The notes under the pieces are model-generated. The model was not told the DNA's origin. It was given only the letters and a program-made list of their open reading frames with translations, and searched no databases. The position numbers were made by a program, and so were the translations under genes. Positions 3,859-48,388 of a stretch of 64,000 nt of DNA are shown one piece after another; the stretch's first letter is position 1; every line of letters begins with the position of its first letter. Source of the stretch: Bacilli bacterium (GTDB lineage Bacteria > Bacillota_I > Bacilli_A > RFN20 > CAG-826); contig JBILRP010000003.1 of assembly GCA_044372565.1 (NCBI GenBank), positions 5,471-69,470 of the forward strand, read 5' to 3'.

Positions 3859-3950
3859 TGGCGGAGAAAGAGGGATTTGAACCCTCGCGCCCGGTTAAGG
3901 ACCTACAAGCTTTCCAAGCCTGCCCCTTCAGCCTCTTGGGTATTTCTCCG
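3859..3950 (-). tRNA. tRNA-Ser (anticodon GGA)
   Basis: Reverse complement folds as a type II tRNA: acceptor GGAGAAA/TTTCTCC, anticodon loop TTGGAAA (GGA), long variable arm, TTCAAAT T-loop, encoded CCA. Confidence 0.85.
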
Positions 3951-17989: not shown

Positions 17990-18080
17990 TGGCGGAGAAA
18001 GAGGGATTTGAACCCCCGCGAGACTTGCGCCTCCTATCAGTTTTCGAAACTGACCCCTTCAGCCACTTGGGTATTTCTCC
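17990..18080 (-). tRNA. tRNA-Ser (anticodon CGA)
   Basis: Type II tRNA: acceptor GGAGAAA/TTTCTCC, anticodon stem TCAGT/ACTGA with loop TTCGAAA, long variable arm, encoded CCA; ends 10 nt upstream of the GDPD start. Confidence 0.85.
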
Positions 18081-18129: not shown

Positions 18130-19929
18130 ATGCATATATTGATATTGTTAGTGATGATTCTAAAAGGTATAATTTTAGAGATGCAATGGTTTGAATTTCC
18201 TTGGTTAACGACTCTTGAAAATCCATTATTGATTTTTATAATCGGTATTGTATTAATGGTTATTTTTTTAATCATTTTAATTACGTATTTAAGCTTTCTT
18301 GCCCAGCAAAGAAAGCACCAAGTTGCAATCAAACAACGCATTCATCATTACTTGGTTTATCGAATCAATCTTAAACTCGATGTAGTCTATGAATTTAACC
18401 CCAAATATCCTGGACATGATAAGTTAATTCCCGTCAGCCAATTTTTAAAAAAGTTCCAACCCTCTGATGCAGAAAAAATATATCAATGGTGGGAAAAATT
18501 ACTCCAGTCAAAACTTGATACGCCTTGGATCCTGACCACGAAGTCCATGAAGAAAAAGCAAGATAGCCACAGGCAATTAATTTTTGAAATTATCAAAATA
18601 GATGAAGCTAAACAAACGATTCATTTTCATCAATATGGTTTGAAATATTTAAAACCCAATCCTAAAAAATTAGCGACAAAACAACTTGTGATTAGTTCAC
18701 AGCAAGCATTTGATATTGTTAAAAAATTACCAGTTAAACAAGGAGCTTTTATTTCCATTTTTATGATGTTTCCGCGTGCTGGATTAGATGAGCAATTTAA
18801 GTATTTTTATTTGTCTCAATGTAAAGAAAAACTTATTCCTTATTTGTCATCTCAATTATTGTTAATTGATACTGCAAACGATATTTTAGTCTTGGCAACA
18901 AAGTCTCTTGAATCTCATGAGTATATGCAAATCGCTCAAAGTTTGTATCGCGTTATTTCTCAATATGTAGAGGTAAATGCATTAGAATCATTGATTAAAT
19001 TTAATTTAGCCATTATTGAACACAAACATTTCCCTAATGATCTAGGAACTTTACGTCGTAAAAGTAAGGAACTTAATCAACTTATGATGAAGAAAAAACT
19101 TAACGTGTTGGCTTATGAAAAACATCAACCTGTCGCTCAAACGTTAGAAAAAAATGAGACGCTATTTGCTGATGATTTTTATCGCCAACTCAAATTTAAC
19201 TTTCTTTACCGCCCTCTTGTTAATCAACCCGATATTGACGTCGTGGGGCAACAAATTATCATTCAACCCCAAACGCCCTCTACTTTAAATACATTTGAAT
19301 TACTGAAAGAAGTGCCCATCATGATGGAATATACGAAAGAATTCTATCGTCGATATTTCTCACTCATTCAACAATCATTGAACCTTCAACAAGGTATTTT
19401 ACTTACACCCTTTTCTTTAACCATGAAATTACAAGAGTTACTACCTGAAATAAAGAATCTTACCTCAGCTTCCCAGTTGGTGGTTTTACTTGATGAAAGT
19501 GAAATCAATGAAATTGCTACCACAGAAATATCCCTTAAAACTTGGGCTGACCCATTAAAAAGAATGGGCGTTCATTTTGCAATTACCATTGATAATATGA
19601 CCCCCAATATGGAAGATCCTATCTATCAGTTTTTTGACTACTTGGTCATCGACTATAAACGAATGATTAATATTGAAAACAATCAAAAGACATCCATTCA
19701 ACTTAAATCAATCTTTCAGAACTACAGTCGATTTGAAAAGCCTTTTGTTGTGGTTGATATGCTTTCAGAGGCAAGTCTAGAATTGTTACCATTAAAGCAT
19801 GTTAAAATTCTAAGTGCTGATTGGATCATGGGTTATCAAACCAAAGCTGATCAGTTAACAAAAAGGCAAGTTAGTAAAATCAAGAATCTTATTAACAAAC
19901 AGGAGCAGTATCATGGAAAAACAAATTAA
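18130..19929 (+). CDS. membrane protein with a C-terminal degenerate EAL-like domain
   Basis: Two N-terminal TM helices; C-terminal about 250 aa aligns by eye to EAL landmarks: LYRPLVN (YQPIV), QII in place of EAL, ITIDNM (DDFGTG), DYLVIDYKRMI (LKIDRSF), and a terminal ...KILSADWIMGY (QGYLF) segment. Confidence 0.55.
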   Translation: MHILILLVMILKGIILEMQWFEFPWLTTLENPLLIFIIGIVLMVIFLIILITYLSFLAQQRKHQVAIKQRIHHYLVYRINLKLDVVYEFNPKYPGHDKLIPVSQFLKKFQPSDAEKIYQWWEKLLQSKLDTPWILTTKSMKKKQDSHRQLIFEIIKIDEAKQTIHFHQYGLKYLKPNPKKLATKQLVISSQQAFDIVKKLPVKQGAFISIFMMFPRAGLDEQFKYFYLSQCKEKLIPYLSSQLLLIDTANDILVLATKSLESHEYMQIAQSLYRVISQYVEVNALESLIKFNLAIIEHKHFPNDLGTLRRKSKELNQLMMKKKLNVLAYEKHQPVAQTLEKNETLFADDFYRQLKFNFLYRPLVNQPDIDVVGQQIIIQPQTPSTLNTFELLKEVPIMMEYTKEFYRRYFSLIQQSLNLQQGILLTPFSLTMKLQELLPEIKNLTSASQLVVLLDESEINEIATTEISLKTWADPLKRMGVHFAITIDNMTPNMEDPIYQFFDYLVIDYKRMINIENNQKTSIQLKSIFQNYSRFEKPFVVVDMLSEASLELLPLKHVKILSADWIMGYQTKADQLTKRQVSKIKNLINKQEQYHGKTN

Positions 19930-21396: not shown

Positions 21397-21489
21397 GGAG
21401 TAGTACCCAAGAGGCTGAAGGGGACGGTTTGCTAAACCGTTAGATCGGAGTAATCCGGTGCGAGGGTTCAAATCCCTCCTACTCCGCCA
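21397..21489 (+). tRNA. tRNA-Ser (anticodon GCT)
   Basis: Acceptor GGAGTAG/CTACTCC, anticodon stem ACGGT/ACCGT with loop TTGCTAA, long variable arm, GGTTCAAATCC T-arm, encoded CCA. Confidence 0.85.
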
Positions 21490-21490
21490 T

Positions 21491-21522
21491 AACCCATATT
21501 CATTGATGGGTTTTTTTATTTT
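21491..21522 (+). terminator. rho-independent terminator after tRNA-Ser(GCT)
   Basis: AACCCAT-attcattg-ATGGGTT hairpin followed by TTTTTTTATTTT. Confidence 0.6.
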
Positions 21523-21565
21523 GAGAATAGGCGAAAAAGTTATAAAATTACAGATAACAACGATT

Positions 21566-22693
21566 ATGGTGATTATAGAAATTGTTAAGACTCGAAACGA
21601 ACTTAAAACATTTATTGATTTTCCATCCAATTTATATGAAGGGAATCCTTTTTTTACCCCTTATATCTATGAGGATGAATTAAGTAATCTTGATCCAAAA
21701 AAGAATCCAGCGAGTTCTTATTGTGATTTTAAGTTATTTCTAGCTAAAAAAGATGGCAAGGTTGTTGGTCGAGTTGCTGCCATCATCAATCGGTTTTCAA
21801 ATGAGAAGTATCATGAAAAACGAGTTCGTTTTAACCGAATTGATTTTATTGATAACCAAGAGGTCTTTGACGCCTTGATTGGTGCAGTTAGTCAGTATGG
21901 TAAAGAGCATGGCATGACCCAAATGGCAGGGCCATTAGGATATTCAGATCAAGACAAAGAAGGCTTACTTACCTTTGGTTTTGAAGAGAAAAATATGTTT
22001 GTTACTTTTTATACTGCTCCCTATTATGTTGACCATTTTCAACGGTATGGTTTTCAAATCGATGCTACTTGGAAGGAATATCAAATTAAAGTCCCTAAAG
22101 CGATACCCCCTATTTTAGATAAAATTTCCCAACGGGTGATGGAAAGAAATCATCTACACGTGGTTCGCATTAAGTCCAAAAAGTATCGATATTTAGCTCC
22201 ATATATCAAACAAATCTTTCAACTAATGAATAAGACGTATGATCATCTTTATGGATATGTTCCTGTCAAAGAAGATTTAATGGATATGTTGGTGAAGCAG
22301 TATATCCCGTTAGTTAATCTAGATTATATTCAACTGATCTGTGATGCGAACGATACCTTGGTTGCATTTGGATTGATGATTCCTTCACCCGTCGATGCTT
22401 TAAAACGTTCAAAGGGACATTTGTTTCCCTTTGGATTTATTAATTTTTTCAAGCAACTAAAGCATAGTAAAGTTTTGGATATGCTTTTAATTGCAGTTGA
22501 ACCTTCCTTAAAAAATTCCGGTGTTTTAGCCCTTGTCTTTACCGAAGCCATTCGTAATGCAATAAAAAACGGCATTGAGCATGCTGAAACAGGACCAGAA
22601 TTAGAAAACAATCAACACGTTCAATCGTTATGGAAAAACTTTGATTCTCGTCACCATAAAACAAGAAGTGCTTTTGTTAAAGATATTCAATAA
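21566..22693 (+). CDS. hypothetical protein (about 375 aa), possibly acyltransferase-fold; first gene of an operon with a PlsC-family acyltransferase
   Basis: Long ORF begins after the tRNA terminator (ATG 21566; the upstream in-frame portion overlaps the tRNA and is rejected); no firm motif recognised. Confidence 0.5.
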   Translation: MVIIEIVKTRNELKTFIDFPSNLYEGNPFFTPYIYEDELSNLDPKKNPASSYCDFKLFLAKKDGKVVGRVAAIINRFSNEKYHEKRVRFNRIDFIDNQEVFDALIGAVSQYGKEHGMTQMAGPLGYSDQDKEGLLTFGFEEKNMFVTFYTAPYYVDHFQRYGFQIDATWKEYQIKVPKAIPPILDKISQRVMERNHLHVVRIKSKKYRYLAPYIKQIFQLMNKTYDHLYGYVPVKEDLMDMLVKQYIPLVNLDYIQLICDANDTLVAFGLMIPSPVDALKRSKGHLFPFGFINFFKQLKHSKVLDMLLIAVEPSLKNSGVLALVFTEAIRNAIKNGIEHAETGPELENNQHVQSLWKNFDSRHHKTRSAFVKDIQ

Positions 22694-23920
22694 ATGGCAA
22701 CCAAGAAATATACGTTTTGGCAGCATGGAGTTTATGTCAAGATCATTCGTTTTTTTGTTGGACCTTTTTTTAAACTCTATTACCGTTTTAGGGCTCGTTC
22801 AATCAAAATTAAAAAGACCGGTCCTTATTTAATCCTTGCCAATCACACGGCAGAATTCGACATTATTTTCTTAGGGATGTTGTTTGATGCCCCTTTGTAC
22901 TTTGTGGCAAGTGATCAACTGTTAAACGCTGGAAAAGGTAGCTGGGTTTTAAGAACACTTTTTAATCCAATTCCAAAGAGTAAATCGGTGGCGGATTTGG
23001 CACTGGTGAAAAGAATGAAGTCAGTTTTACAAGAAGGTGGTAACGTTGCAATATTTCCAGAAGGTAATTCATCCATTCATGGTGGGCCTTCTAAGATTCC
23101 TGAAGGGATGGGTCGTTTAATAAAATTTTTAAATGTTCCCGTTAAGTTTATCTCTATTCAAGGATTATATTTATCGTCCCCTCGCTGGTCGTATCATCGA
23201 AAATTTGGGCCTTCAACCATGAAAGAGATAAAAACCATCACCCCTGATCAATTTCATTCCATGGCACCGGAATCATTAGAAACCTTAGTGAAAGAGACAC
23301 TCAATATCTCCGCCTATGATCACAACCACTTTTCCTATAAAGGTAAGCGGATGGCCGAAGGATTACATAAATTAATTTTTACCTGCCCTCAATGTCGTGG
23401 GTTGTTCACCACAGACAGTATGCATCATGAGTTATTTTGTCACCAATGTGACTTTAAAGGCACTTACGATCAACATGGCTATTTAAACATTCACGGTCAC
23501 AAAGATAATTTAATCAACCATGATGCGATGAATCTTCAGCGCTTCCACGAATACATGCTTGTTCATGGAAACAAGGTTTCTATTCACCGCCAATGTGAGG
23601 TTGCATTTTGGGAAGGTGGGAATCAACGACGAACTGCTTTTGAAGATACCAATTTTGAAATTTCAGAAAAAGGAGTAAAATTGTTAATTAAGGACAAGGA
23701 AATCCATTATTCCTTTGATGACATTTATTCTCAAGCGATTCAAGTTCGAACAAAACTTCTCATTTATCCTAACCAAGGTCAAATGATGTTGCTAAGGTTT
23801 GACAAAAAGGACTCCCCATACGCTTTGCTCAACGTGATCAAATGGTATAAAACTTATTTAATGGAGGGAAATAAACATGAATTTACTAAGCCCCTCGCCA
23901 CAACCTTTTTGGGCCTTTGA
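22694..23920 (+). CDS. PlsC-family (lysophospholipid) acyltransferase with a C-terminal Cys-rich zinc-ribbon domain
   Basis: HX4D motif in ILANHTAEFD; FPEGNSS (FPEGTR-like) motif; C-terminal CPQC...CHQC pair. Confidence 0.75.
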   Translation: MATKKYTFWQHGVYVKIIRFFVGPFFKLYYRFRARSIKIKKTGPYLILANHTAEFDIIFLGMLFDAPLYFVASDQLLNAGKGSWVLRTLFNPIPKSKSVADLALVKRMKSVLQEGGNVAIFPEGNSSIHGGPSKIPEGMGRLIKFLNVPVKFISIQGLYLSSPRWSYHRKFGPSTMKEIKTITPDQFHSMAPESLETLVKETLNISAYDHNHFSYKGKRMAEGLHKLIFTCPQCRGLFTTDSMHHELFCHQCDFKGTYDQHGYLNIHGHKDNLINHDAMNLQRFHEYMLVHGNKVSIHRQCEVAFWEGGNQRRTAFEDTNFEISEKGVKLLIKDKEIHYSFDDIYSQAIQVRTKLLIYPNQGQMMLLRFDKKDSPYALLNVIKWYKTYLMEGNKHEFTKPLATTFLGL

Positions 23921-25334
23921 TTTTTACTGGAGTCAGATCATCCAATTTTCGATTATTATGGCCATTTTGTTATTGGCCAATGTATTAAGAAGAAAAGTTC
24001 TTTGGTTAAAAGCTTCTTTATTGCCAGTGGCAGTCATTGGTGGTTTTTTAGGCTTATTGATCAAGTATCTCTTTAATGGTAGCCCAATCTCAATTGCTAA
24101 TCTAATGATAGAAGAGACGAGCTTATTTAATGTGGACACATTAAGTTCATTTACCTACCACGCGATTGCCATAGGTTTTGGTGCCTTAACCCTTAAAGGT
24201 ATCGATCAGATGAATCAAGGCCCAATGAGGAAAAAACCGCTCGCCGTGAAAAGTGGGATGGTCATTGTCAATTCTTATCTAATCCAGGGTATTTTTGGTC
24301 TAATTGTCACAAGTATTCTTACTTTCTTCTTTGTCAATATTCCTAATTATGCAGGGTTTTTATTACCGATGGGTTACGGTCAAGGACCTGGTCAAGCTCT
24401 GAATGTCGGTGATATCTTTCAACGTCTAGATTTTATCTATGGGCGTGATTTTGGTCTTTCTATTGCTTCAATTGGTTTTCTTGCAGCGTCATTAGGCGGC
24501 GTCATTTATCTACGAAAATTAAAAAACAAGGGCTTATTAAAGACAGTAGAAGAAACCTCGATGGAATCAAAACAAGAATCAACAATCCTTGAAGGCAATG
24601 GCCAGATCCCTCTTGTCGATGCCGTGGATAAGTTAACCATTCAAGTTGCCATTTTATTCTTTATTTATGGATTATCTTGGTTATTTATTTATGTTCTTGA
24701 ACAATTGATGCGACAAAGCGGTGTAGATTTTTTAATTAGGAATTTAATCCCACTTTTATATGGTTTTAACTTCATTATTGTTGTTTTTGCAGCATTATTA
24801 TATAAAGTGATCACCCGTAGACTCATTCAATCCAAGATCATGAAAAGAATTTACACGAATGACTTCCTTCTCAATCGAATTGCTGGATTAGCTTTTGATA
24901 TCATGATGATTGCCTCGATTATGGCTATTGACATTACCTTGGTTGGTGATTTAGGGTTCTTGGTGACGTTACTCGTTTTAGTGATTGGTGGGGGTTTGAT
25001 CACTTACTTCTATCTAGGTTATCTCACCAAAATCGTCTACCCTAACTATCCCCATGAAGCATTCTTGGTGTTTTATGGCACGATGACCGGTACCGCCTCC
25101 ACTGGGATTGCCTTATTAAGAGAAAAAGACCCTTATTTTCAAACTCCGGCTGCTAATGACATTGTCTATGGTTCATCGATGGCAATTCCTTTAGGGTTTC
25201 CCCTGCTCTTATTTGTTGGGGTGGTCAGTCAAGGCTGGGTATCTTTGTTGATTGTTTTGGTTATTTTTTCATTAATTTTTACGGTTTATCATCTAATTTT
25301 AAGCAAATCAAAGAAGAAACAAAATCTTCAGTAA
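23877..25334 (+). CDS. sodium/glutamate symporter family (GltS-like) membrane transporter
   Basis: 485 aa polytopic protein; N-terminal LANVLRRKVLWLKASLLPVAVIGGFLGLL and C-terminal YGTMTGTASTGIALLR resemble GltS landmarks; GGAGGG RBS; overlaps the previous gene by 44 nt. Confidence 0.65.
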   Translation: MNLLSPSPQPFWAFDFYWSQIIQFSIIMAILLLANVLRRKVLWLKASLLPVAVIGGFLGLLIKYLFNGSPISIANLMIEETSLFNVDTLSSFTYHAIAIGFGALTLKGIDQMNQGPMRKKPLAVKSGMVIVNSYLIQGIFGLIVTSILTFFFVNIPNYAGFLLPMGYGQGPGQALNVGDIFQRLDFIYGRDFGLSIASIGFLAASLGGVIYLRKLKNKGLLKTVEETSMESKQESTILEGNGQIPLVDAVDKLTIQVAILFFIYGLSWLFIYVLEQLMRQSGVDFLIRNLIPLLYGFNFIIVVFAALLYKVITRRLIQSKIMKRIYTNDFLLNRIAGLAFDIMMIASIMAIDITLVGDLGFLVTLLVLVIGGGLITYFYLGYLTKIVYPNYPHEAFLVFYGTMTGTASTGIALLREKDPYFQTPAANDIVYGSSMAIPLGFPLLLFVGVVSQGWVSLLIVLVIFSLIFTVYHLILSKSKKKQNLQ

Positions 25335-26719: not shown

Positions 26720-26754
26720 AAAAACCCACTCTTCATGGTGGGTTTTTCTTTTAA
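26720..26754. terminator. bidirectional rho-independent terminator between eno (+) and the convergent minus-strand operon
   Basis: AAACCCAC-tcttcatg-GTGGGTTT hairpin flanked by A-run and T-run. Confidence 0.6.
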
Positions 26755-27437
26755 ATGTGTAACCAGCGTTGTAAGTACTGCCAGAATTTTGGTCTTAAGT
26801 AAGTTAATAATGCCGTCAAGGAAATCAATGAAGTAATTAAGGCAATCAACGACGGAACAAAAACAGATGATGCAAATAACCAAACCATCACGGAAAATTG
26901 CACTAATCCTACGATGGAGCTTACCAACATTTGAAAGAGAATGACATCGGTTTTTCTCATGATGGTTGCAAGAATAAAAAAGAGTAAATTGCTCGTTGAT
27001 ATGAGAATAGGTACCACATATTGTAGGGGCCATGCATCGAAGGTTTGTTGGTTGACAAACGCCAATAAAGTCGTAATGATCGATAAGCCAAATAACTGCC
27101 ATAAGATCACATATCCGATGCCATTCCGGTTATAAATCGATTTGTAAATGAGAATCCACATATAAAAAACAATAAATGTCATCAGGAAAGTCGTTCCTAA
27201 TTCAGAGGCAATCAAGGCTAGATCAATGATCAATGTCAATAACAAGGCCAGTAACAAAGGAAAGGCAAAAAAAGCATGCATGATGGATGCGGTTTGTTTT
27301 TCGATTTGATTGTAATTCGGAGTTGGATAAAGGATTTGTTTATCATTTTCTGATACTTGATGGACAAAACCACCGCAAACAGGGCAGTGGGTCAAACTGC
27401 TGTCGACTTGAATATGACATCGTTGACATGTTTCCAC
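26751..27437 (-). CDS. polytopic membrane protein with an N-terminal zinc-ribbon (CxxC...CxxC)
   Basis: METCQRCHIQVDSSLTHCPVCGG followed by 5-6 hydrophobic helices; start abuts the stop of the upstream gene. Confidence 0.5.
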   Translation of the reverse strand: METCQRCHIQVDSSLTHCPVCGGFVHQVSENDKQILYPTPNYNQIEKQTASIMHAFFAFPLLLALLLTLIIDLALIASELGTTFLMTFIVFYMWILIYKSIYNRNGIGYVILWQLFGLSIITTLLAFVNQQTFDAWPLQYVVPILISTSNLLFFILATIMRKTDVILFQMLVSSIVGLVQFSVMVWLFASSVFVPSLIALITSLISLTALLTYLRPKFWQYLQRWLHI

Positions 27438-28721
27438 TTACTGACCCTCCTCCCATCGATTGCCGCTGGCTTTGACGTTCACGTTTAAATCCTTAACAAG
27501 CATGTTGACAAATGATTGGATAAAGGAGCGATCATCGATGATTCGAGAAAAGGTGATGACCAGTTGGTCTAAAAAAGTTGCCATCGCAACATTGATGGGT
27601 AAGATTGGGGTTGCACAGAGCGTAAAATCAAAATGATCAATAAATGATTGTGTGGATTGTGGCATCTCAATTTTACCTAAGTTAGACATGACAATACTTA
27701 ACGCGGTTTCACCAACACGATTAAACACAAATTTAATGACCCATCGCTTAATAAACAAGGGAATAAATCTTAATAAAAGCATTCGTTCAACCTTTAAATT
27801 TGCTCTGATTTGTGGGGCAAGAATCTCAAGTTGCTGACCCTTTTTTAGCTGTTGATTCACAACGTCTAAGACTTCTTGAAATGTAGAATCTGGTTTAAAA
27901 AAACCACCAATATTAATCGTCATCACAAAGTTTTTCATCGTTTTTGAGGGTATGTACTTACGCATATCCACCGGGATAGAAAGAATGATTTTCTTTCTCT
28001 TTTTAGGATGAAGTGCTTCTTGTTTTTGAATCAATATCAAAATTAACATCGTTGCAAATAAACCTGTGATTGTGGTTTGCTTTGCCTTAGCAACGGCAAT
28101 CAATTCTTTTGTGTTTAAGTGCAAATGGGTAAGGTAATGACCAGTATGCTCGAAATACGTTCCTTTTAAATGAAAAGCATTTTCTGTTGGCAAAAAAATG
28201 CCATTGCCTTTGGTCACTTTCGTTGCAAAACTATCTTCAAGTTCCGCATTCGTTACCTGATCATTGGCATCAAATATAATGCCTTCTGCATCCACGACAT
28301 GACCTTTTTCTCTTAAATAAGCTAAGGTTAAGGTTTTTAAAAACTCCATGCCACCCCGTCCATCGGTAATTGCATGAAATACTTCAATAGAAATTCGTTG
28401 GCGGTGATAATAAATTTCAATCAAATGTTTCAAACGGTCATTGGGTCTAGGGTTCGTACCAAACATGTTTGGATCAGGCTGGACTTTAAAAAGTTTAGAT
28501 TGGTTTTCTAAATAGTACCAAAACAATCCTTTTCGTAAACGCGTATTAAAATTTGGAAAACGAAACAATGTTTTTTCTGCAGCAAGTTGAAGAACAACCG
28601 GATCAATGGTTTCCTTGAGAACAATACTTAAGCGAAAATAAGAGGCTCTTAATTTTCCGGTAATGATAGGGAAAAGTTTACCGGCATTGTCGATTTTAAA
28701 CCACTGCGTTGTTCGATTCAT
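27438..28721 (-). CDS. condensation/CAT-fold acyltransferase (HxxxDG motif; WS/DGAT or alcohol-acyltransferase-like)
   Basis: 427 aa; VFHAITDGRGGMEF contains the HxxxDG catalytic signature of the condensation-domain / chloramphenicol-acetyltransferase-like superfamily. Confidence 0.55.
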   Translation of the reverse strand: MNRTTQWFKIDNAGKLFPIITGKLRASYFRLSIVLKETIDPVVLQLAAEKTLFRFPNFNTRLRKGLFWYYLENQSKLFKVQPDPNMFGTNPRPNDRLKHLIEIYYHRQRISIEVFHAITDGRGGMEFLKTLTLAYLREKGHVVDAEGIIFDANDQVTNAELEDSFATKVTKGNGIFLPTENAFHLKGTYFEHTGHYLTHLHLNTKELIAVAKAKQTTITGLFATMLILILIQKQEALHPKKRKKIILSIPVDMRKYIPSKTMKNFVMTINIGGFFKPDSTFQEVLDVVNQQLKKGQQLEILAPQIRANLKVERMLLLRFIPLFIKRWVIKFVFNRVGETALSIVMSNLGKIEMPQSTQSFIDHFDFTLCATPILPINVAMATFLDQLVITFSRIIDDRSFIQSFVNMLVKDLNVNVKASGNRWEEGQ

Positions 28722-45608: not shown

Positions 45609-46190
45609 ATGAAGCCAGGATTATTAATTATATTAAGTGGTCCCTCCGGCGTTGGAAAAGGAACCATTCGAAAACGCATCATGGAAGACGAAAGTCTTCA
45701 ACTTTCATATTCCGTTTCGATGACGACTCGATCAAAACGAACAGGGGAAATCAATGGCAAAGATTATTTTTTTGTGGATCAACCAACTTTTCAGTCTGCC
45801 ATTGACCAAAACAATTTATTGGAGTGGGCTGAATTTGTAGGTAATCGTTATGGGACGCCTAAAGCTGAAGTTCAACAATTACGTAGTTTAGGCAAAAACG
45901 TCTTATTAGAAATAGAAATCAACGGGGCCAAACAAGTCATTGCTAAAACCATGGGTCCAGGTTTGGTGACGATCTTTTTAATGCCTCCTTCCTTTGAGGC
46001 TCTTGAAGCAAGAATTAGAAAACGAAAAACTGAATCAGAATCAATCATTCAAGAACGATTAGAAAAAGCTAAAAGAGAAATGAATCTGCATCATGATTAT
46101 CAATATCTTGTGATCAATGATAATCTTGAACGCGCTGCAGATCAGATTAAACAAATCATTAAAGAAAGAATGCAATCCATGCACCCATGA
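45609..46190 (+). CDS. gmk: guanylate kinase
   Basis: LSGPSGVGKGTI P-loop; 193 aa. Confidence 0.95.
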   Translation: MKPGLLIILSGPSGVGKGTIRKRIMEDESLQLSYSVSMTTRSKRTGEINGKDYFFVDQPTFQSAIDQNNLLEWAEFVGNRYGTPKAEVQQLRSLGKNVLLEIEINGAKQVIAKTMGPGLVTIFLMPPSFEALEARIRKRKTESESIIQERLEKAKREMNLHHDYQYLVINDNLERAADQIKQIIKERMQSMHP

Positions 46191-48388
46191 AGACCTACAT
46201 TTTAGAGGTCTATATCGAACATCAGTTACAACAACTTAATCGCCCATTTACATATCTTTATCATGGTGTATCTATTCCACAACGAGGCATACGTGTTCGC
46301 GTTCCCTTTCATCAACAATCCTTAATTGGATATGTGACCAAAGTCACTGAAACCAACGATGTTGAAAGTTTAAAAGCTAACAGTCCTTTTCCAATTTCAG
46401 ATATTGACTCATTACTCGATGAGACCCCAATTTTATCCGAAGAGCTATTGTTATTGGTCGATCACCAAGCAACCCAATATTTTTCCTCAAAAATTGCCAT
46501 GCTACAAGCGATGCTTCCACCTTCTTTATTTCCATCCAAACGAGGGTTAAAAGGGCCTAAAATCGCCTATGAATCTTGGTTGAAGATCCATCCCACTAGC
46601 CCACTACCTTCGATGAACGGAAGACAACTTGGTTGGTGGCAAATGGTTGAAAATCAAACTCGGATTCGCTTGCACGACATCAAAAGTAAAGCGGCGATTA
46701 GGTATTTAACTGAATCAGGTTTGGCGTCGATTGAAAAAGAAGAAAAGAGAAGATTCGTTTTCAATTCCCTCACGGTTGAAAATAGACCGACTTTGACAGG
46801 ACAACAAAAACAAGTCATTGATGAATTTAATCAATCAAAAGCCCTGGTATATTTACTCGAAGGCGTGACTGGCAGTGGCAAGACGGAAGTTTATCTCAAC
46901 CTTTCTGAAACCATGATTTCTTCTAACCAATCTGTATTAATGATTGTTCCAGAGATTGCCTTAACACCCGTGATGATGAGTTACTATCGTCAACGATTTG
47001 GAGAAAAAGTTGCTATCCTTCATTCTGGGTTAACGCCTGCAGAAAAATTTGATGAGTATCGGCGGATTTTAAATGGACAAGCGGTGGTGGTGGTTGGCGC
47101 AAGATCAGCAGTTTTTGCCCCCTTACAACATCTTGGTTTAATTATTCTTGATGAAGAACATTCGGAAACCTATAAGCAAGACAATGCTCCTCACTACCAC
47201 GCTCGGGAGATAGCCCTTTGGAGAAGTCAGTATCACCAATGTAAGCTTCTGATGGGAACGGCAACACCCTCTTTAGAATCAAAAGCTCGGGCTCAAAAAG
47301 GTCTATATCAACTCCTTAGCTTGCCTCATCGAATTCACGATCAACATATTCCTAAGACAACGATTATTGACATGACAGATACTAAGCAATTATCTCGAGA
47401 CAACTCTTTGTTTTCTCACGCATTGTTAAAAGGAATAGCCGATCGCTTATCTAAAAAACAACAAGTCATCCTGCTTGTGAATCGCCGAGGTTATGCCCAA
47501 AGTGTTATTTGTCGGTCATGTCAACATTTATTCATTTGCCCAGACTGCCAAGTTCCACTTGCATATCACTCAAAAATCGATAGTTTAAAATGCCACTATT
47601 GCGATGTCATTGAAACCCTTCCTAAACAATGCCCATCATGCCAATCTCATCAATTGATGAAACAAGGTTTTGGAACCGAACAAGTGGTGAGTATTTTAGA
47701 AAAACTATTTCCGCAAGCAAACGTGGGTCGACTTGATGCAGACATGACTGGATTAAGAAGTTCAATCACAGAAACCTTAAAAAAAGTCCAAGATGGTTTC
47801 ATTGATATTTTGGTTGGAACACAAATGGTTGCCAAAGGTCATGATTTTCCTAATGTTACCCTTGTTGGGGTGATGCTTGCAGATTTAGGCTTACATGTAC
47901 CGCATTATCGAGCCTCAGAAAGAACCTTCCAATTGATTGCCCAAGTGGTTGGAAGAACGGGGAGAGGTCCTCAGTCTGGAGAGGCCATCATTCAAACCAC
48001 GATGCCTGAACATTACTCAATCGTCTTAGGTAGTCAACAAAACTATCAACAATTTTATCTTCGAGAAATGAAAGAACGAAAGATCCTTCAATACCCTCCC
48101 TACACGTATCTAGCAAGATTTGAATTATCATCTCGCGATCAGGAGATGGTTGATGAAGTTGCTTTAGAATTACACCAATTACTTGTTGATCAATTAGAGT
48201 CGATTGCTACGGTGATAGGGCCGAATATACCTTACCCAGAATATTTTGCAGGTCTTTTCCGCAGAAGGGTTCTTATCAAGTACAAAGACTATGCACAGTT
48301 ATATGCTCGATTAAATTCAATTTATGAACTCCTCGTATTAAAAAAACAAGTGAAAATAAATTTTAATTTAGACCCTTATGACCATTAG
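46187..48388 (+). CDS. priA: primosomal protein N' (replication restart helicase)
   Basis: 733 aa; Walker A GVTGSGKTE; DEEH box; Cys-rich zinc-binding region CRSCQHLFICPDCQ...CHYC...CPSC. Confidence 0.95.
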   Translation: MKTYILEVYIEHQLQQLNRPFTYLYHGVSIPQRGIRVRVPFHQQSLIGYVTKVTETNDVESLKANSPFPISDIDSLLDETPILSEELLLLVDHQATQYFSSKIAMLQAMLPPSLFPSKRGLKGPKIAYESWLKIHPTSPLPSMNGRQLGWWQMVENQTRIRLHDIKSKAAIRYLTESGLASIEKEEKRRFVFNSLTVENRPTLTGQQKQVIDEFNQSKALVYLLEGVTGSGKTEVYLNLSETMISSNQSVLMIVPEIALTPVMMSYYRQRFGEKVAILHSGLTPAEKFDEYRRILNGQAVVVVGARSAVFAPLQHLGLIILDEEHSETYKQDNAPHYHAREIALWRSQYHQCKLLMGTATPSLESKARAQKGLYQLLSLPHRIHDQHIPKTTIIDMTDTKQLSRDNSLFSHALLKGIADRLSKKQQVILLVNRRGYAQSVICRSCQHLFICPDCQVPLAYHSKIDSLKCHYCDVIETLPKQCPSCQSHQLMKQGFGTEQVVSILEKLFPQANVGRLDADMTGLRSSITETLKKVQDGFIDILVGTQMVAKGHDFPNVTLVGVMLADLGLHVPHYRASERTFQLIAQVVGRTGRGPQSGEAIIQTTMPEHYSIVLGSQQNYQQFYLREMKERKILQYPPYTYLARFELSSRDQEMVDEVALELHQLLVDQLESIATVIGPNIPYPEYFAGLFRRRVLIKYKDYAQLYARLNSIYELLVLKKQVKINFNLDPYDH

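Follow-up and report, generated by a model that had tools for sequence, protein, structure and literature searches.

A conserved gene pair for a PlsC/Aas-type acyltransferase and a divergent GltS-superfamily permease, accompanied by a tandem-GNAT protein in one group of Bacilli

A 64,000-nucleotide stretch of DNA from a Bacilli bacterium (assembly GCA_044372565.1, contig JBILRP010000003.1, positions 5,471 to 69,470; hereafter the window) contains three adjacent genes, which we call A, B and C, between proS upstream and the enolase gene downstream. Gene A encodes a protein of the GNAT superfamily with a tandem-GNAT fold, gene B an acyltransferase of the PlsC/Aas type that carries a zinc ribbon and a domain resembling PH domains, and gene C a polytopic protein that, by sequence comparison, belongs to the GltS superfamily (PF03616) as a very divergent member. 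Here, we describe a computational analysis of these genes and of their relatives. The conserved core of the unit is the B-C pair, and A has been added to it in one group of Bacilli. The reading that we tentatively favour, as a possibility somewhat short of an even chance, is a transport-coupled acylation of a lipid-like or lysolipid-like acceptor that would be analogous to the Aas-LplT system; A would then be an extra enzyme that modifies an amine.

The features of the locus, in window coordinates and all on the forward strand, are as follows.

21397-21489, forward: tRNA-Ser(GCT), called by ARAGORN; an upstream neighbour only
21491-21512, forward: terminator-like hairpin followed by a T-run; a pattern match in the sequence only
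21521-21548, forward: promoter-like TTGAGA-16-TAAAAT ahead of gene A, from a consensus scan; a pattern match only
21566-22693, forward: gene A, 375 amino acids; soluble tandem-GNAT protein
22694-23920, forward: gene B, 408 amino acids; PlsC/Aas-type acyltransferase, predicted to be membrane-peripheral
23863-23879, forward: GGAGG Shine-Dalgarno sequence (23863-23867) and the ATG of gene C at 23877, within the 3' end of B
23877-25334, forward: gene C, 485 amino acids; polytopic, a divergent protein of the GltS/ESS superfamily (PF03616)

A first-pass annotation of this DNA had described a tight three-gene operon directly after the tRNA-Ser(GCT) terminator, with the last two genes overlapping by 44 nucleotides, and the coordinates and sequence bear this description out. 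The three genes are co-oriented, the TAA of A (22691-22693) abuts the ATG of B at 22694, and the GGAGG lies 9 nucleotides ahead of the ATG of C. The 44-nucleotide overlap and the Shine-Dalgarno sequence inside B suggest that C and B are translationally coupled. The start of A was taken as the ATG at 21566, in agreement with the N-termini of its homologues, in place of the upstream GTG inside the tRNA gene that a mechanical list of open reading frames (ORFs) had given. Since B is terminated by TGA, the code in use is the standard bacterial one. The window has a G+C content of 37.8%, and in this respect genes A, B and C do not stand out from their neighbours. All three have many conserved homologues and are thus real genes rather than chance ORFs. 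The closest public locus, 98% identical over A, comes from a Lake Mendota metagenome-assembled genome (MAG). MAGs from freshwater, labelled 'Bacilli bacterium', are the nearest relatives.

The pairing of B with C extends far beyond the relatives of the window. B lies directly upstream of C, with no A, in Acholeplasma granularum, in two other, metagenomic, lineages of Bacilli, in Paenibacillus rubinfantis, whose C is 35% identical to that of the window (E 1e-70), and in a lineage in which B is just 21-22% identical to the window B and the downstream gene matches the C profile with an E value of 2e-87. Overlaps of 23-38 nucleotides between B and C were called in four loci (L090, L091, L093 and L097; L numbers denote individual loci). 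When metagenomes were sampled around C, B was found directly upstream in 43 of the 66 loci with enough upstream sequence and downstream in one. A preceded 7 of 34 B-C pairs in this sample, whose flanks vary in dozens of ways, and B-C pairs without A occur in many metagenomic Firmicutes.

The triad was sampled around A, taking one locus per species (80 loci). A and B are adjacent in 26 of these and A, B and C in 25, the remaining locus ending at a contig edge. The first-pass annotation had proposed that conservation of the triad be checked in related genomes, and the synteny was found: the order A-B-C is always the same, down to identities of 53% for A, 30% for B and 37% for C, and it recurs in at least five flanking contexts, among them proS and enolase, proS and a gene resembling CoA-disulfide reductase, an upstream gene resembling phosphoribosyl-pyrophosphate synthetase, and ferritin and a P-type ATPase. 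In one locus (L084) A stands between proS and enolase and B-C is precisely absent, a demonstration that the one can occur apart from the other. In a tree of C proteins the A-linked pairs fall in one part, and this clustering suggests a single recruitment of A. We also considered whether the C genes that lack B form a clade of their own; this is partly so, in that one large clade is uniformly linked to B, and elsewhere in the tree the two states are interleaved.

In several unrelated genomes B-C is adjoined by pairs of a PadR regulator and a HAAS sensor, or by OmpR-type two-component systems (L089, 8660-10022; L093, 7580-8568; L106 and L107, 6107-7112; upstream of the pair in L132 and L163). 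These neighbours hint, weakly, at regulation of B-C by a membrane-associated signal or envelope stress.

Protein B matches the acyltransferase family PF01553 with 46.7 bits (gathering threshold 23; E 3.5e-12), and its AlphaFold2 model is of high confidence, with a mean predicted local distance difference test score (pLDDT) of 88.8 and a predicted TM-score (pTM) of 0.86. The parts of the protein, read from motifs and model and all encoded on the forward strand, are listed here.

amino acids 10-29, forward: two N-terminal amphipathic helices in the AlphaFold2 model
about amino acids 38-205, forward: catalytic domain of the PlsC/Aas type (PF01553, fold)
22841-22861, forward: NHTAEFD, the catalytic motif with H51x4D56
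23054-23068, forward: FPEGN (amino acids 121-125); the catalytic domain also contains P163-R-W
23384-23449, forward: Cys4 zinc ribbon CPQC...CHQC (C231, C234, C249 and C252)
amino acids 273-294, forward: long helix
23582-23863, forward: PH-like seven-stranded beta-sandwich capped by a helix (amino acids 297-390)

The description of the second gene as a PlsC-type acyltransferase with HX4D and FPEG motifs and an added CxxC...CxxC domain thus agrees with family match, motifs and fold. Across 27 homologues, whose identity falls to about 20%, H51, D56, P122, E123, G124 and N125 do not vary, and NHTAEFD, FPEGN and the zinc-ribbon residues are invariant or nearly so. Motif III of lysophosphatidic acid acyltransferases usually reads FPEGTR, where B has FPEGN. 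A Foldseek search matched B with PlsC of Thermotoga maritima (5kym; TMt 0.65, root-mean-square deviation 3.0 A, 23% identity), and the match includes its N-terminal two-helix element. B thus shares with this PlsC the HX4D and PEG motifs, the fold and the helices at the membrane interface; it differs in being about 170 amino acids longer, by the zinc-ribbon and PH-like module, and in being paired with a permease. The C-terminal sandwich resembles the PH domains of ARAP2 and Sin1 and the FERM F3 domain, and on the evidence of the model a membrane- or partner-binding role for it is plausible.

Of the E. coli enzymes Aas and PlsC, B appears closer in sequence to Aas: the B profile aligns with the Aas transferase domain at an E value of 2.8e-8 and 25% identity, and with PlsC at 1.3e-5 and 16%. 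The best NCBIfam match of B is likewise PRK08633, an acyl-[acyl carrier protein (ACP)]-phospholipid O-acyltransferase (E 3.5e-14), covering the acyltransferase region alone with 51.5 bits against a full-length cut-off of 1221. A search of B for an AMP-binding (acyl-ACP synthetase) domain gave no match. No transmembrane segment is predicted in B. The full-length architecture is common: an exhaustive profile search at E<=1e-30 returned at least 1,727 clusters at 50% identity, nearly all of 385-430 amino acids.

A few relatives of B (P0362, P0370 and P0478) carry an N-terminal polytopic extension of about 200 amino acids with 5-6 hydrophobic segments, for which Pfam gave no match and NCBIfam a faint match to the MAGa3780 family only. 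Because some relatives are fused to such a membrane domain, the B family is likely to act at the membrane. In the B homologues of Acholeplasma granularum (L090, 4806-6029) and P0299 the four zinc-ribbon cysteines are replaced, with the remaining protein and the pairing with C kept, so the zinc site appears dispensable in some lineages. When the B profile was run against the 64-kb window, no second PlsC came up; an ORF of about 740 amino acids (46163-48385, forward strand) gave a weak match to the B-family profile (E 5e-5).

By hydropathy, C is polytopic, whereas A and B have no transmembrane segment. The resemblance of the third gene product to glutamate/sodium symporters, proposed in the first-pass annotation, holds at the level of the superfamily rather than of the substrate, and through relatives, since the window C itself gave no Pfam, NCBIfam or PDB sequence match at E<=10 and profile searches were likewise unhelpful. 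Of 24 family members, three, related to C at about 45% identity, exceed the gathering threshold of PF03616 (30.7-41.8 against 26 bits), over model positions 6-363 of 368, and a profile alignment of the C family with E. coli GltS is weak (E 0.005) and covers the N-terminal half. Because relatives pass the PF03616 threshold over the whole model and the family aligns, if weakly, with GltS, we regard C as a distant branch of the superfamily. Two motifs are invariant in the family, GYGQGPGQA (amino acids 166-174), whose counterpart in the alignment with E. coli GltS is GGHGTGAA, and GTASTGIALLRE.DP.F (amino acids 405-421). The distance from classical members is nonetheless large: E. coli GltS itself scores 548 bits against PF03616, compared with 30-42 bits for the relatives of C, and C is about 85 amino acids longer and genetically coupled to an acyltransferase.

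Protein A belongs to a large and strongly conserved family, with 4,787 word-indexed matches and identities of 55-60% between distant Bacilli. It scores 19.9 bits against PF00583, just below the gathering threshold of 20.7, and precomputed matches to this family are on record for many homologues at 55-60% identity. PF00583 was the sole Pfam match at E<=10, with none to PF13444 (Acetyltransf_5, the OlsB/GlsB type), FemAB or DUF2156 (the C-terminal domain of MprF, MprF-C); NCBIfam gave no match for A or its homologues, and a search of PDB sequences gave none for A. No transmembrane or hydrophobic segment is predicted, so A is expected to be soluble. The AlphaFold2 model (pLDDT 84) consists of two consecutive GNAT alpha/beta folds, and Foldseek returned 181 PDB matches at E<=1e-3, the top 50 of which are nearly all GNAT-fold and many of them tandem. 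On the strength of this model we assign A to the GNAT superfamily, with a tandem-GNAT fold. The first-pass annotation had seen in A an N-acyltransferase-like protein, possibly of the Fem/MprF-C fold; the superfamily and a tandem-GNAT fold shared with FemX and MprF-C stand, profiles of the OlsB type, FemAB or DUF2156 gave no match, and no confident assignment outside the GNAT acyl- and acetyltransferases emerged.

The best fold matches of A are CoA-dependent tandem GNATs, namely the glucosamine N-acetyltransferase GlmA (5KF1, 4ZM6), MshD (1OZP), a clavulanate-pathway protein (2WPW) and MAB_4324 (7Q3A), with TM-scores of 0.52-0.57 and E values of 1e-12 to 1e-6, although identity to A is just 9-14%. 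A CoA-loop-like motif, K316-N-S-G-V-L-A322 (22511-22531), is present in the C-terminal half of A and absent from the N-terminal half, as in those tandem enzymes whose C-terminal domain is catalytic. Its G319 is invariant, the corresponding stretch in homologues reading RAKGAGA, RRKGVAA or QSSGVMA, and amino acids 292-336 align weakly with motif A of RimI (E 0.057). Two further loops, GPLGYSDQDKEGLL (amino acids 122-135) and AETGPELENN (amino acids 340-349), are invariant within the family and specific to it.

FemX, FemA, MprF-C (L-PGS) and Sbb17 were also matched by the model of A. These matches bear on a different arrangement, in which B, with or without A, would build or modify a lipid on the cytoplasmic leaflet and C would act as the flippase or exporter that carries it to the outer leaflet or outside. 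MprF joins a tandem-GNAT lipid-modifying domain to a membrane flippase, its C-terminal domain is among the fold matches of A (4v36 and 5vrv, E about 5e-7), and the tight coupling of B and C and the envelope-stress-type regulators nearby would suit such an outward system. We nevertheless hold it to be improbable: FemX, MprF-C and Sbb17 are matched at TM-scores of 0.36-0.45, below the CoA-dependent enzymes, A carries the CoA-loop-like motif, the core pair occurs without A, and GltS-family members are generally known as importers. MprF is, moreover, a single fused protein that depends on aminoacyl-tRNA, has another flippase fold and lacks a PlsC-type partner.

Dependence of A on aminoacyl-tRNA might also have been read from the adjacent tRNA-Ser gene, which the first-pass annotation had named in describing the operon. 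This sign is removed by comparison of loci. In relatives the tRNA-Ser(gct) gene remains beside proS even where A lies 2-3 kb away (L029 and L066), and other triads are preceded by tRNA-Val or by no tRNA. The tRNA travels with proS, and its position next to A-B-C is incidental.

The proposal that A, B and C form an aminolipid pathway like OlsB/OlsA has fared less well. In it, C would import an amino acid, A would N-acylate it with a (3-hydroxy)acyl group and B would O-acylate the product, giving a lipid of ornithine, glycine or some other amino acid in the manner of OlsB/OlsA or GlsB/GlsA. In those systems, too, a GNAT-fold enzyme is paired with a PlsC-type O-acyltransferase; A has such a fold and lies directly ahead of B with stop and start abutting, the triad is kept in at least five contexts, C belongs to the superfamily of glutamate symporters, and B gives a faint match to the OlsA equivalog model NF052553 (E 0.0057). 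That match, however, amounts to 15.8 bits, where the cut-off is 300, and B is closer to Aas. A is a tandem rather than a single-domain GNAT and shows no profile similarity of the OlsB/GlsB type at E<=10. An obligatory sequence of N-acylation and O-acylation would predict that A and B stay together, whereas B-C lacks A in most lineages and A mostly lacks B-C; the conserved pair here is B-C, not A-B. The permease has no counterpart in OlsBA or GlsBA, and known aminolipid pathways are generally understood to require no importer. Because A lacks similarity to OlsB and GlsB, B falls below the OlsA cut-off and A and B-C are largely independent of each other, this model is weakened, and we give it little probability.

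A's behaviour outside the triad bears on a simpler account. In the 54 loci where A stands without B-C, a search for another conserved partner found unrelated neighbours: an ArsP_2 permease, a P-type ATPase, transketolase, BrnQ, DUF1538 with PII, a bPH_2 protein, an alpha/beta hydrolase and trigger factor. It could then be that C imports a small polar compound (glutamate-like, glycerol-3-phosphate, a glycerophosphodiester or an amino alcohol), that B, as an alternative enzyme of the PlsC type, esterifies the same compound or is merely co-regulated, and that A is an unrelated, co-transcribed N-acetyltransferase. The only characterised relatives of C carry a small amino acid, the nearest solved folds of A acetylate small amines (glucosamine and the precursor of mycothiol), and the locus with A between proS and enolase documents that A is separable. 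Against this account stand the A-B-C contiguity in its several contexts and the overlapping B-C arrangement, whose persistence down to about 22% identity in B and through dozens of flanks is hard to explain if the two proteins are not directly coupled in function. We regard it as unlikely, though a serious candidate.

We return to the transport-coupled acylation that we favour. The comparison with Aas and LplT suggests itself because the conserved, coupled unit consists of a peripheral Aas/PlsC-like acyltransferase and a polytopic permease, for which aas-lplT is the sole well-studied parallel. B would be a soluble, membrane-peripheral O-acyltransferase of the PlsC/Aas (lysophospholipid acyltransferase, LPLAT) superfamily, probably held at the cytoplasmic face of the membrane by its two N-terminal amphipathic helices and by the zinc-ribbon/PH-like module, and C would be a polytopic GltS-superfamily permease, translationally and perhaps also physically coupled to B. 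By substrate channelling of the Aas-LplT type, C would deliver an amphiphilic or polar acyl acceptor, for which a lysolipid is our favoured guess, to the cytoplasmic face, and B would acylate it from acyl-ACP or acyl-CoA in the salvage or remodelling of membrane lipids. A, a putative CoA-dependent tandem GNAT, would have been recruited ahead of B-C in one low-GC clade of Bacilli, which comprises freshwater and gut 'Bacilli' and Acholeplasma-like MAGs and includes the window, and would probably transfer an acetyl or acyl group to an amine of that same substrate or product.

In the Aas-LplT system, which has been described as a Gram-negative system for lysophospholipid retrieval, the transferase domain of Aas docks on LplT, and the complex couples flipping of the lysophospholipid to its re-acylation (PMC11416262). 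The likeness lies in gene order, the acyltransferase gene being upstream of the transporter gene and overlapping it in both cases (by 8 nucleotides in E. coli aas/lplT and by 44 in B/C), and in the catalytic domain of B, which aligns better with the Aas transferase domain than with PlsC. The differences are that C belongs to the GltS superfamily and LplT to the major facilitator superfamily, that B has a zinc ribbon and a PH-like domain in place of the acyl-ACP synthetase domain, that the hosts of B-C are Firmicutes and Mollicutes-like bacteria, and that a tandem GNAT is a partner in one clade. The relation to Aas-LplT is thus one of analogy and not of membership.

Several observations weigh against this proposal. 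C is not homologous to LplT, and to our knowledge the only characterised members of the GltS family carry glutamate. B lacks the synthetase domain of Aas, and no fusion of B with C or with A was found among the top 150 relatives of B in the exhaustive profile search. About one third of the C-family loci lack B, and some subfamilies of B stand alone. A occurs alone in 54 of the 80 A-anchored loci, and since its neighbours there are unrelated, its role may be independent of B-C. Finally, the sequence would be compatible with either direction of transport, import and salvage or export of the product.

Other features of the region lie outside the triad. A gene for a 599-amino-acid protein (18130-19929, forward strand), for which Pfam and NCBIfam gave no match, overlaps the start of proS by 17 nucleotides. 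Wherever a fetched locus includes proS (17 loci), this gene lies ahead of it; 19 loci altogether have the gene, with identities as low as 22-35%. Three tRNA-Ser genes lie within 18 kb (3859-3949, 17990-18080 and 21397-21489, with anticodons gga, cga and gct), and the cga and gct copies flank the 599-amino-acid gene and proS likewise in 10 of 20 related loci scanned for tRNAs. In the closest relatives, a gene for a glycerophosphodiester phosphodiesterase (GDPD) is conserved at a distance of a few kb upstream (L001, 3380-4405, reverse strand); its equivalent in the window lies upstream of the 599-amino-acid gene, and in other lineages it is unlinked to B-C. This neighbour may be relevant to lipid head-group metabolism. 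Just past enolase is a second conserved gene pair (26751-28721, reverse strand), one gene encoding a 427-amino-acid protein with a sub-threshold match to PapA_C (condensation/acyltransferase-like) and the other a DUF6320 membrane protein with a CxxC...CxxC zinc ribbon at its start. In relatives, including the locus without B-C (L084), the two genes stay together, and they may represent another lipid- or ester-forming acyltransferase system. Among the closest public records, several lake MAGs (L007, CAMCVC010000005.1; also L018, L009, L020 and others) are labelled 'Staphylococcus epidermidis' or 'Staphylococcaceae'. Their gene content and nearest named relatives ('Bacilli bacterium', Erysipelotrichales and Acholeplasma-like) suggest that these labels are wrong.

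A, B and C each belong to a known superfamily; for the architecture of B, its systematic pairing with a GltS-superfamily permease and the triad we found no description. Searches of open-access text returned nothing on the B-C gene pair, on GltS with an acyltransferase, on lysophospholipid reacylation in Firmicutes or on the A-B-C triad, and we know of no equivalent of LplT-Aas in Firmicutes. Beyond the favoured mechanism, a bolder and distinctly unlikely possibility is that B-C is a previously unrecognised machine for lipid salvage or remodelling in Gram-positive and Mollicutes-like bacteria. A permease of the GltS (elevator-type) fold would in that case have become a translocator of lysolipids or other amphiphiles, passing its cargo on to an Aas-like acyltransferase docked to it, as a non-homologous functional equivalent of LplT-Aas, and in the A-B-C clade A would add an N-acyl or N-acetyl group to yield an undescribed amine-modified membrane lipid.

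The architecture of B defines a large family, and its usual genetic partner is a GltS-superfamily permease. Should the permease be an ordinary amino-acid carrier, the finding would reduce to an uncharacterised but ordinary operon. The idea is testable in cultivable carriers, which include Paenibacillus macerans, P. rubinfantis and Acholeplasma granularum. If it is true, the ESS transporter family would have a second function, outside amino-acid transport, and if the pair handles lysolipids, it would explain how membrane lipids are repaired or scavenged in wall-less or reduced-genome Bacilli and in many Firmicutes of the gut and of anaerobic digesters.

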